Part shown: positions 1 through 3,000 of the stretch, one piece after another
How positions within the stretch are numbered: the first letter of the stretch is position 1
Layout of the letters: each line of letters begins with the position of its first letter
DNA from: a virus
Taxonomy: Duplodnaviria; Heunggongvirae; Uroviricota; Caudoviricetes
Length of the DNA: 7,493 nucleotides
Reading direction: 5' to 3' (one strand)
Virus record (IMG/VR): IMGVR_UViG_2698536509_000001
Location: 1 to 7,493 of that record
Position numbers: made by a program

Positions 1-3000
1 CAATGCGCTTACTGATGCGGAATTACGCCGTAAGGCCGCAGATGAGCTTGTCCATATGACTGCGAGAATTAACCGTGGTGAGGCGATCCCTGAACCAGTA
101 AAACAACTTCCTGTCATGGGCGGCAGACCTCTAAATCGTGCACAGGCTCTGGCGAAGATCGCAGAAATTAAAGCTAAGTTCGGACTGAAAGGAGCAAGTG
201 TATGACGGGCAAAGAGGCAATTATTCATTACCTCGGGACGCATAAGAACTTCTGTGCACAGGACGTTTCCGCGGTAACAGGCGCAACCGTAACCAGCATA
301 AATCAGGCTGCGGCTAAAATGGCGCGGGCAGGAATCCTGATCATTGATGGTAAGGTCTGGCGAACGGTGTATTACCGGTTTGCTACCAGGGAAGAACGGG
401 AAGGAACGGTGAGCACGAACCTGATTTTTAAGGAGTGTCGCCAGAGTGCAGCGATGAAACGGGTATTGGCGGTATATGGAGTTAAAAGATGACCATCTAC
501 ATCACTGAGCTAATAACAGGCCTGCTGGTAATCGCAGGCCTTTTTATTTGGGGGAGAGTAAATCGTGGCTGAGTTGATTTTCTCTGCATTGAGGCTTCTC
601 GGTGCTATGTGGATGGTGGCGACGTTCATTGTGGTTGCTGGCTGTTTTGTCCGGTTGGTAGGCGAAGGTAAAGACCTGGTGGGTGTGCTTTTCGGTAGCA
701 TTCTCCTGTGGGTGATTATCGGTGTTGCGCCTGTCGCTGTAGCAAAAATGGCGTGGCGTTTTGTGAGTTGAACTGAGGGTAAGTACCGATGGACGAATCA
801 AGAAAGCAGTTTGAAGAATGGTTTGAAAATTACACCGGATGTGATCCTAAAAATAAAATATACGCCAATATGGTTGAGATGTATTGGCAAGCGTGGCAGG
901 CATCGCGAGCAGCTTTTGAAATTGAGCTGCAAAAGCCAAAGAAAGGCCCACTTCCCGGTGATTATCACATTGGCTATGACACAGGTGCAGAATCACAATA
1001 CGAAAGCGATGTAGAGGCCATCCGCACTGCTGGAGTCAAAGTGAAGGAGTGAGTATGAGCGCATACGAAGAAATCATGTTAGCCCTGCGATTCTTTTTCG
1101 GTGTGGAAGAAGATGAAAACGTAAATGAGATTATCGGGCAAGACCATGACCAGATAGGGACTATTGCAGCTGCACTTGACGATTACAGGAGCGTAAATGG
1201 TGAGGAAACTAACGTTTGAACTAAGAAGCCCCATCCATCAGCAGAACGCCATTCAAGCTATCCAGCAAATTCTTCCAGACCCAACCAAACCAATCGTAGT
1301 AACCATTCAGGAACGCAACCGCAGCTTAGACCAAAACAGGAAGCTATGGGCCTGCTTAGGTGACGTCTCTCGTCAGGTTGAATGGCATGGTCGCTGGCTG
1401 GATGCAGAAAGCTGGAAGTGTGTGTTTACCGCAGCATTAAAGCAGCAGGACGTTGTTCCTAACCTTGCCGGGAATGGCTTTGTGGTAATAGGCCAGTCAA
1501 CCAGCAGGATGCGTGTAAGCGAATTTGCGGAGCTATTAGAGCTTATACAGGCATTCGGTACAGAGCGTGGCGTTAAGTGGTCAGACGAAGCTCGACTGGC
1601 TCTCGAATGGAAAGCGCGATGGGGAGATCGGGCAGCATGACTATCAAATCAAATACGCCAGCACACGACAAGGACTGCTGGCAAACGCCGCTTTGGCTTT
1701 TTGATGCACTGGATATTGAGTTTGGATTCTGGCTGGATTCGGCAGCGAGCGACAAAAATGCTCTGTGTGCTCACTGGCTAACTGAGGCCGACGACGCGCT
1801 AAATTCTGAGTGGATAAGCCACGGGGCAATCTGGAATAACCCACCGTACAGCAATATCAGGCCGTGGGTGGAAAAAGCCGCTGAGCAGTGCATACAACAG
1901 CGACAGACGGTAGTGATGCTTGTGCCAGAGGATATGTCAGTCGGATGGTTCAGCAAGGCTCTGGAGAGTGTCGACGAAGTTCGCATTATCACTGATGGAC
2001 GGATTAATTTTATCGAACCATCGACGGGGCTGGAGAAGAAGGGAAACAGCAAAGGCTCCATGCTGCTGATTTGGCGACCGTTCATCAGTCCTCGACGGAT
2101 GTTTACTACCGTATCCAAAGCGGCATTGATGGCGATCGGGCAGGGCGTCAGAAGGGCGGCATGAGGCGACAGCGAAGAAGTATCACCGACATCATCTGCG
2201 AAAACTGCAAATACCTTCCAACGAAACGCTCCAGAAATAAACGCAAGCCAATCCCAAAAGAATCTGACGTAAAAACCTTCAACTACACGGCTCATCTGTG
2301 GGATATCCGGTGGCTAAGACATCGTGCGAGGAAAACAAGGTGATTGACGCGATGATTTATTCGGGGCTATATTCCTCACGCGCCAGCAAAATCTGGCGTC
2401 GGGATTAGCACCCCGGATGTTTACGGAGCGATATGAGACGCGCCAGCGTCTTTTTTTCATATCGTTTGCACAGTCACATTCGCGATTTATGGCGGGCTGT
2501 GTGGGGGAGCCGAAAGGCTCGCCGGTTTCCGTACCCGGTAGTGCTAACCCCGCACAGTTCGCCACCACGATGATTAGCACCTGACGGTGGCGATAATGTC
2601 CAAATGTACGGAGTTATCGTTATGACCACTCAAATCTCTGTTGAAACTCTCTCCCCGATCACCCATAACCAGATTCCTGTTATTACCACCGAACTTTTGG
2701 CGCAGCTTTACGGCACTGAGCCGGTGCGTATTCGCCAGAATCATCATGAGAACAAAGTACGCTTCGTTGAAGGGAAACACTTTTTCAAAGTTGTTGGTAA
2801 TGACCTTAAAGAATTGCGGGTCGCTTTAAACTACTCACAAAATCCAGTTTCACCCAAAGCCCGCTCCCTCATCCTCTGGACAGAACGAGGCGCAGCACGC
2901 CACGCCAAAATGCTCGAAACCGATCAGGCATGGGATGTGTTCGAAAAACTGGAAGACTGCTATTTCAGCCAGTGCGAGAAAAATACTGGCAAACAAGAGA

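Follow-up and report, generated by a model that had tools for sequence, protein, structure and literature searches.

The immI locus of phages P1 and P7, with its c4 antisense RNA, icd and ant, was reportedly described by Citron & Schuster in 1990. In the GenBank record of P1 (NC_005856), whose names for the a and b sites are used throughout, a promoter, the sites a1 and b1, the c4 RNA (48343-48419) and the sites a2 and b2 are followed by icd and ant1/2, with the note "repression of icd ant translation". The isrK-orf45(STnc1160)-anrP locus of Gifsy-1 in Salmonella Typhimurium (NC_010392, minus strand, 34316-34077) was characterised by Hershko-Shalev et al. 2016 (PMC4825925). In that locus the isrK promoter drives transcription of anrP, the antirepressor mRNA arises by read-through of the IsrK terminator and is translationally silent, and a processed RNA, STnc1160, arises 3' of IsrK. 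IsrK supplied in trans activates anrP translation more than 100-fold, and the compensatory changes G28A/C162U and G31A/C159U demonstrate pairing between a1 and the C4 segment a' (PMC4825925). In the APSE phages of Hamiltonella, isrK and C4 small RNAs have been annotated 5' of a Bro-N protein (Rouïl et al. 2020, PMC7313666). Here we compare with these systems the 278-nucleotide (nt) spacer between ninE and the phage antirepressor gene ant in a sequence window of 7,493 nt (IMG/VR record IMGVR_UViG_2698536509_000001, positions 1 to 7,493), which spans the nin-Q-stx region of a Stx1a prophage from a non-O157 Shiga toxin-producing Escherichia coli and is 99.7% identical to E. coli 2013C-4974. We judge it probable, at roughly 0.8, that a self-contained control cassette of antisense RNA, of the P1 immI / Gifsy-1 isrK type and acting on ant, occupies this spacer. 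The cassette is an already known regulatory system that has been left unannotated in the closest RefSeq record, where the spacer is without any feature.

A scan of the spacer with Rfam returned three families above their gathering scores, all on the + strand and in the expected order: isrK (RF01394; 75.9 bits, gathering score 50; at 2380-2456, where the model is matched over its full length, positions 1-77), c4-a1b1 (RF03163; 49.8 bits against 46.7, at 2367-2419) and C4 (Table 1), the last two of which belong to one Rfam clan, CL00128. The homologous loci with which the spacer was compared consisted of 17 phage loci collected by DNA similarity and 27 genome loci reached via the Ant protein. 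Gifsy-1 was absent among the matches listed in the similarity search and was compared via its accession instead. All 17 phage loci carry isrK and C4 5' of an antirepressor-type gene; both RNAs are also present in five of the first 20 of the 27 genome loci, and a sixth (L035) has C4 together with a weak c4-a1b1 match.

The isrK match folds as expected for this family of small RNAs, with a minimum-free-energy structure of -27.6 kcal/mol that consists of three hairpins, the last of them an intrinsic terminator, and a weak 5-bp linker helix. The hairpins and terminator form the minimum-free-energy fold in nearly all homologues as well as in the window, and when 23 sequences were aligned, 89% of the cells were paired and eight pairs had changed on both sides, with none of 500 shuffles attaining the observed paired percentage or covariation score. 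On the strength of the minimum-free-energy fold and of the compensatory changes in the 23 loci, the IsrK hairpins and terminator exceed chance. For C4, the canonical fold, in which a long closing stem encloses two hairpins and a single-stranded joiner, is likewise the minimum-free-energy structure (-49.0 kcal/mol), as it is in all 22 homologues folded. In the corresponding 23-sequence alignment, which includes Gifsy-1 and P1, 98.4% of cells are paired and 13 pairs have changed on both sides, and on four of five measures the observed values were attained in none of 500 shuffles. The tRNA-like C4 stem and the CCA that follows it at 2565-2567 are kept in the sequence. C4 is probably excised from a longer precursor, as in P1, RNase P being expected to make the 5' end in cassettes of the P1 type, and by analogy with the ends of the annotated P1 c4 RNA its mature form probably extends from about 2491 to 2566.

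Two segments of C4 are predicted to be exposed for pairing: the a' seed in the joiner (unpaired probability 0.98) and the b' seed TTCCGTAC in the loop of the second hairpin (0.86). The window contains complements of these segments, 7-8 nt long, at four places, two of them within IsrK (starting at 2405 and 2422) and two in the leader of ant (2574 and 2606). In an earlier sequence-only reading of this DNA, GTGCTAA and TTAGCAC had been listed as the arms of a 7-bp inverted repeat; the further copy of TTAGCAC at 2405-2411 was missing from that list, as was the duplication of TACGGAG at 2422 and 2607. Across the 23 loci there are 15 distinct a' joiner sequences and 19 distinct b' loop sequences, occurring in 20 combinations, and the target sites vary in step with them, so that seed, IsrK site and leader site co-vary three ways. 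In about 22 of the 23 loci a' has a perfect 7-nt complement at one fixed position of IsrK, in 15 different sequences. The median length of perfect complement at the four sites is 7/7/7/8 nt for cognate pairs versus 4/4/4/5 nt for non-cognate ones, and 1-4% of non-cognate pairs attain the cognate median. These patterns suggest that IsrK and C4 are the two halves of one system with exchangeable specificities.

The position of the last of these sites bears directly on the antirepressor gene, as b2 overlaps the Shine-Dalgarno sequence of ant. In the homologues, too, the downstream b-type site adjoins or overlaps this Shine-Dalgarno sequence. About 10 nt (median; 3-16 nt in 19 of 20 scorable loci) separate its end from the ATG of ant, whose distance from the start is +226 to +247 in 19 of these 20; three loci without a long ant open reading frame (ORF) after the b-type site (L013, L014 and L030) were excluded from these spacing statistics. 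The RefSeq start of ant in the window is the ATG at 2622, with a further in-frame ATG at 2604, where the ORF as listed begins. Two Pfam domains, ORF6N (PF10543, 3.9e-20) and P22_AR_C (PF10548, 1.3e-23), were recovered in its product.

Around the 3' end of C4 we also found a further conserved pairing, in which the 3' strand of C4 (2559-2566) can pair with the downstream strand GGTGGCGA (2586-2593). This helix and the C4 closing stem are mutually exclusive, and three strands co-vary, namely the two strands of that stem and GGTGGCGA. In the 23 loci, Gifsy-1 and P1 among them, 95.1% of its cells are paired and three pairs have changed on both sides, and neither its paired percentage nor its covariation score was attained in 500 shuffles. 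It is a genuine conserved mutually exclusive pairing, sited away from the antiterminator proposed in the sequence-only reading.

At the other end of the cassette, a putative sigma-70 promoter lies immediately after ninE. Its consensus match (10 of 12 positions) is of a kind of which one is the mean expectation by chance in the region scanned; within that region TTGACG-18-TATATT was the sole promoter-like site found by the consensus scan. Although the sequences have diverged, most of the 23 loci have a -35/-10 pair equally far from the 5' end of IsrK, and Gifsy-1 and P1 have one similarly placed. By homology to the promoter-dependent isrK of Gifsy-1 (PMC4825925), transcription would start near 2380, where the isrK match begins.

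Table 1. Positions of the RNA elements between ninE and ant, and of the adjoining genes, in the window.
Feature	Position	Strand	Remarks
putative sigma-70 promoter of isrK	2344-2373	+	-35 TTGACG 2344-2349, 18-nt spacer, -10 TATATT 2368-2373
IsrK-type small RNA	2380-2457	+	hairpins, terminator, putative decoy sites a1 and b1
IsrK hairpin 1	2380-2399	+	GCGCCAG 2380-2386 / CTGGCGT 2393-2399
IsrK hairpin 2	2400-2415	+	
a1 site TTAGCAC	2405-2411	+	in loop of IsrK hairpin 2; complements C4 a'
b1 site TACGGAG	2422-2428	+	IsrK linker just 5' of terminator, complementary to C4 b' loop
intrinsic terminator of IsrK	stem 2435-2452, T-run to 2457	+	
C4-type antisense RNA	2485-2569	+	Rfam C4 RF01695, 78 bits against gathering score of 45
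C4 closing stem, 17 bp	2490-2506 / 2548-2564	+	
C4 GAAA hairpin GAGCC-GAAA-GGCTC	2507-2520	+	first internal hairpin
C4 hairpin 2	2521-2539	+	
b' seed TTCCGTAC	2527-2534	+	in loop of C4 hairpin 2; complements b1 and b2
C4 joiner, 8 nt	2540-2547	+	single-stranded
a' seed GTGCTAA	2541-2547	+	C4 joiner, complementary to a1 and a2
a2 target TTAGCAC	2574-2580	+	5 nt past Rfam C4 3' end; same relative position in P1
GGTGGCGA	2586-2593	+	can pair with C4 3' strand 2559-2566; hairpin would show a2 in loop
b2 target GTACGGAG	2606-2613	+	overlaps ant Shine-Dalgarno GGAG 2610-2613
ninE	2161-2343		RefSeq; NinE confirmed by Pfam
antirepressor gene ant, ORF6N + P22_AR_C domains	2622-3302	+	RefSeq name 'phage antirepressor Ant'
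KilAC antirepressor	3377-4099		RefSeq

The closest parallel to this arrangement is Gifsy-1, which shares with the window both the order and the spacing of the elements: a sigma-70 promoter (putative in the window), a 77-nt IsrK, C4 about 25 nt further on, a2, b2 at the Shine-Dalgarno sequence and the antirepressor gene. The Gifsy-1 IsrK likewise has two hairpins and a terminator, the Rfam models isrK, C4 and c4-a1b1 match both loci, and the first 12 residues of Ant are those of Gifsy-1 AnrP. The two differ in the recognition sequences themselves (a site TTGGCGT in Gifsy-1, TTAGCAC in the window; b site ATCACCG and GTACGGAG, respectively) and in the position of the cassette, which follows the Q-like antQ in Gifsy-1 and ninE in the window. 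In addition, the Rfam scan of the window gave no isrJ match after ant, unlike in Gifsy-1, and in contrast to its relatives the window has no coupled ORF upstream such as Gifsy-1 orf45, which overlaps the anrP start.

The resemblance to P1 immI extends to the order of the elements, the fold of C4, the position of a2, the placing of b2 at a ribosome-binding site and the antirepressor operon that follows; P1 also has the hairpin in which a strand further downstream pairs with the 3' strand of C4 and a2 sits in the loop. The window antirepressor is an ORF6N + P22_AR_C protein; the comparison with P1 covers the RNA elements and their arrangement. The P1 region carrying a1 and b1 (L047, 48230-48311) matches the isrK model at 35.1 bits, against a gathering score of 50, and contains a terminator-like hairpin with a U-run, which suggests that a short RNA resembling IsrK may be transcribed in P1 too. 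The b2 site of P1 lies over the ribosome-binding site of the small gene icd, which is translationally coupled to ant1, whereas in the window b2 covers the Shine-Dalgarno sequence of ant directly, and the ORF listing contains no icd-like small ORF between C4 and ant. The absence of icd is a difference of arrangement, not of RNA family. P1 differs further in having a C1 operator and two promoters. The APSE phages share the isrK-C4 tandem directly 5' of an antirepressor-like gene, and their GenBank record annotates a' and b' regions, with the two labels reversed relative to P1; the downstream gene family (Bro-N) and the host are different, and IsrK and C4 are taken as two unrelated small RNAs (PMC7313666).

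The sequences themselves show to which families the RNAs belong, their structures, the three-way co-variation and the overlap of b2 with the ribosome-binding site. With the start site, the processing of C4, the direction in which regulation runs and the role of IsrK as a decoy carried over from P1 and Gifsy-1, we infer that the cassette would work as follows. The constitutive-looking sigma-70 promoter would start transcription near 2380, and most transcripts would end at the terminator (2435-2457) to give an IsrK of about 77 nt, while those that read through would run on into C4 and the antirepressor mRNA. The C4 segments a' and b' would then pair with a2 and b2 in the ant leader. As b2 covers the ant Shine-Dalgarno sequence, binding of C4 there should block translation of ant, which would keep the antirepressor silent in the lysogen. 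IsrK would compete for the same C4 segments through its duplicate sites a1 and b1, so that a rise in IsrK relative to C4 should lift the repression.

Several points weigh against this account. It is from homologues that the start site, the ends of C4 and the direction of control all come. The calculated duplex energies, which speak for the model (-34.9 kcal/mol for IsrK and -23.4 kcal/mol for the ant leader, each with the C4 core, and -11.2 kcal/mol for b'::b2), take no account of the cost of opening intramolecular structure. The ant Shine-Dalgarno sequence is itself predicted to lie in a local hairpin (2590-2621) with an unpaired probability of 0.08, the 5' half of b2 being in the loop, and because it is buried in this way C4 may not be the sole block to translation. 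In Gifsy-1, moreover, the authors explain activation by a structural switch of the read-through mRNA together with translation of orf45, and not by a free C4 RNA being titrated; constitutive expression of the orf45/STnc1160 region left the toxicity of IsrK uncountered; and with the change G28A placed in cis in a1, the basal expression of anrP goes up from 4 to 93 units (PMC4825925), which a pure decoy does not predict.

The first alternative is accordingly the published Gifsy-1 mechanism itself. Here the short IsrK acts in trans to shift the read-through isrK-ORF-ant mRNA from a translationally silent structure A, in which the middle part of IsrK is paired in cis with the C4 region, to a structure B, in which a small ORF that begins at the conserved C4 'AUGG' has its ribosome-binding site freed; ribosomes translating this ORF then switch on ant by translational coupling. 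In Gifsy-1 this switch and coupling have direct genetic and biochemical support (PMC4825925), and the window keeps both an ATG of the Gifsy-1 type (2489, +110) and the extensive IsrK::C4 complementarity given above. The coupling step, however, does not carry over well. Gifsy-1 orf45 has 45 codons and a stop that overlaps the anrP start (ATGA), whereas the ORF at 2489-2584 in the window has 31 codons and a stop (2582-2584) that falls 37 nt short of the ant ATG, with no overlap. From locus to locus the length of the equivalent ORF varies between 3 and 199 codons, so that coupling is not conserved, which suggests that the coupling described for Gifsy-1 is not general. As a gene in its own right, the ORF at 2489-2584 was rejected for want of a Pfam match and of a conserved length. 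The Gifsy-1 authors found that orf45's nucleotide sequence is conserved while its amino acids vary, which fits an RNA better than a protein, and that double mutants restoring a1::a' pairing stay derepressed (224 and 327 units versus 4 in the wild type) (PMC4825925). The latter, by our own reasoning and not that of the authors, is explained if C162U and C159U also break a'::a2, in keeping with the C4 model. We therefore think it unlikely, although it deserves to be kept in mind, that the Gifsy-1 switch as published is what operates in the window.

A second alternative is control of the P4 CI/seqA type, in which a C4-like RNA would alter termination by pairing either with a2/b2 or with the a1/b1 sites of nascent transcripts, be it at the IsrK terminator or via Rho further downstream; what is mainly set would then be the amount of transcript reaching ant and not its translation. 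Such a possibility, together with the structural homology between IsrK and P4 seqA, was raised by the Gifsy-1 authors, who also found that IsrK in trans increases a transcriptional fusion 8-fold (PMC4825925). In the window, b1 ends at 2428, just 6 nt from the start of the terminator stem at 2435, and C4 shares its Rfam clan with c4-a1b1. The P4 CI family is presumably a member of that clan, CL00128, too. Both a1 and b1 lie outside the terminator stem, so that their pairing would not directly make or break the terminator. Furthermore, the translational effect in Gifsy-1 (139-fold) far exceeds the transcriptional one, which polarity after a block of translation would explain, and constitutive STnc1160 did not lower IsrK toxicity (PMC4825925). 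Control at the level of termination thus seems to us rather improbable.

A third alternative is the one put forward in the sequence-only reading, which had taken the spacer for an attenuator-like leader in which duplicated arms form mutually exclusive hairpins and short leader ORFs govern read-through into the ORF6N gene. All of the sequence features named there are present. Hairpin 1 (2380-2386 / 2393-2399) is the first hairpin of IsrK; the terminator (stem 2435-2452, T-run to 2457) is genuine and forms its last hairpin; the 10-mer ACGCGCCAGC, at 2378 and 2438, occurs exactly twice in the 7.5-kb window, where 0.01 copies are expected; and the 18-codon ORF (2352-2408, TAG stop), the GAAA hairpin (2507-2520) and the GTGCTAA (2541-2547) / TTAGCAC (2574-2580) repeat are all found. 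What that reading said of function survives in part. A regulatory leader for the ORF6N gene is borne out in the form of RNA control of the antirepressor, as is read-through into that gene, the terminator being real and read-through being the source of the antirepressor mRNA in Gifsy-1 (PMC4825925); the attenuator mechanism and the control by leader ORFs are not. The GAAA hairpin and the 7-bp repeat, which had been listed along with the attenuator, are instead a hairpin of C4 and the C4 seed a' with its target a2.

The core of the attenuator proposal is an alternative pairing, under the control of a leader peptide or a factor, between the 3' arm of hairpin 1 and the second copy of ACGCGCCAGC inside the terminator, by which termination would be blocked. 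The 10-mer is truly duplicated, a 7-bp alternative helix can be drawn, and the aligned 5-bp core of this antiterminator is pairable in 90% of cells. This pairability reflects conserved G/C columns: 125 of 500 column shuffles match or exceed it. Covariation across the homologues separates the two structures, as no core pair of the antiterminator has changed on both sides whereas hairpin 1 is compensated; changes at column 18 are made good at column 4 of hairpin 1 but have no counterpart in the alternative helix, whose column 65 is broken in 5 of the 23 loci. Folding with alternative structures gave the same picture, the forced antiterminator reaching -19.2 kcal/mol as against -27.6 kcal/mol, a cost of 8.4 kcal/mol, and having a pair probability of 2e-6. 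The duplex between arm and terminator beats 95% of composition-matched shuffles in only two of the 23 loci. Even when the 5' arm of hairpin 1 was removed, the terminator remained ahead (-21.9 versus -17.4 kcal/mol), and an explicit stem search gave it a probability above 0.8 after this deletion in 19 of the 23 loci, the exceptions being L003 and L005, where an alternative helix forms, and L017 and L019, where A-rich segments pair with the U tail.

The duplication of the 10-mer is not conserved in the homologues either. The terminator GACGCGCCAGCGTC is also found with an unrelated hairpin 1 (L009, L011-L014), the hairpin 1 of the window is also found with two other terminators (L003-L007 and Gifsy-1), and in L018 the second copy reads CGCCCG, without a compensating change. 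From these mosaic combinations and the L018 variant it follows that the 10-mer is a lineage-specific coincidence of two G+C-rich arms.

The 18-codon ORF at 2352-2408, which had been read as a leader ORF, was also rejected as a conserved coding sequence or regulatory leader peptide. With the putative promoter at 2344-2373 placing the start near 2380, it would begin at -28, between the -35 and -10 elements and hence outside the transcript. It is absent from 9 of 20 loci (including L018, L012, L015-L017, L023, L031 and L032) and occurs only where the ninE junction is shared, with a length of 18, 22 or 43 codons, and its TAG stop lies inside the variable a1 recognition loop. In phage Lahn2 its counterpart is annotated as ORF22, starting from the GTG at 2340. 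Like attenuators of the trp/his type, the cassette has an intrinsic terminator in a 5' leader, and read-through would feed the downstream gene; it differs from them in having neither a conserved leader peptide within the transcript nor a competitive antiterminator helix, for which covariation was likewise absent, and in that control would be exerted by antisense pairing acting in trans and in cis. We give a leader-peptide or factor-dependent attenuator next to no chance of being correct.

An antisense cassette acting on ant thus remains our preferred reading, and related sequences are widespread. Of 5,426 complete E. coli genomes, 2,558 gave blastn matches to related sequence, at up to 7 places per genome, most matches being at 60-80% identity and some partial. 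Strain 2013C-4974 has five places with cassette-like sequence. None of 10 sampled E. coli matches had an RNA feature annotated under it, and several of the matches adjoin genes for an 'ash family protein'. The closest match to the spacer in the phage database (96.8% identity) is L018 (PP818812.1, 'Actinobacillus phage vB_Apl-pPE4'). Its host is given as Actinobacillus pleuropneumoniae, which is odd for a sequence of the E. coli lambdoid type and may reflect misassignment of the host or contamination.

Other RNAs can stand where the cassette stands. In seven loci, mainly from Pectobacterium (L020-L022, L024, L025, L028 and L029), its place is taken by sRNA-Xcc1, and in L033 by a sar match on the opposite strand. 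The presence of different small RNAs before one family of ORF6N antirepressors suggests that RNA control cassettes are exchangeable in front of it.

Two further phage sequences, L048 (LC727892) and L049 (LC727841), a Stx1a and a Stx2a phage named after one strain, JNE121849, contain cassettes whose a sites (TTGGCGT and TTCGAAC) are different and to which the b-type motif GAAACC is apparently common, with short matches only in one of them. This hints that the co-resident JNE121849 prophages have partly distinct RNA specificities.

As to the wider setting, the RefSeq gene order around the cassette is ninB, a methyltransferase gene, ninE, the antirepressor gene ant, the KilAC antirepressor gene, ninG, ninH, Q and stx1AB. 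Two further small-RNA matches were returned by Rfam 3' of stx1B, STnc100 (7134-7347, + strand, 190.7 bits) and the anti-sRNA AgvB (7349-7408, - strand, 56.6 bits), with a sub-threshold match to AsxR there as well.

For the prophage examined here, a speculative attenuator is replaced by a known and testable RNA module that fronts the antirepressor gene of an Stx1 prophage, a scientific gain which, past annotation, is modest. Antirepressors can trigger prophage induction without the SOS response, and induction drives the production of Shiga toxin; RNAs that gate ant are for this reason relevant to toxin release. We also raise, tentatively and as something that may well prove wrong, the possibility that IsrK is the a1/b1 decoy of the C4 system, in which case the "dual-function IsrK" of Gifsy-1 and the "c4 immunity" of P1 would be one mechanism, with the a/b code wiring co-resident prophages into cross-talk. 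If so, the a and b recognition sequences would constitute a combinatorial RNA specificity code, with at least 20 a/b combinations in the 23 loci, and the IsrK or C4 of one prophage would switch the antirepressor of another on or off whenever the two share specificity. With cassette-like sequence in about half of complete E. coli genomes, at up to 7 places, a network of this kind would be possible, and cross-talk that included Shiga-toxin phages would affect both their induction and the release of toxin.

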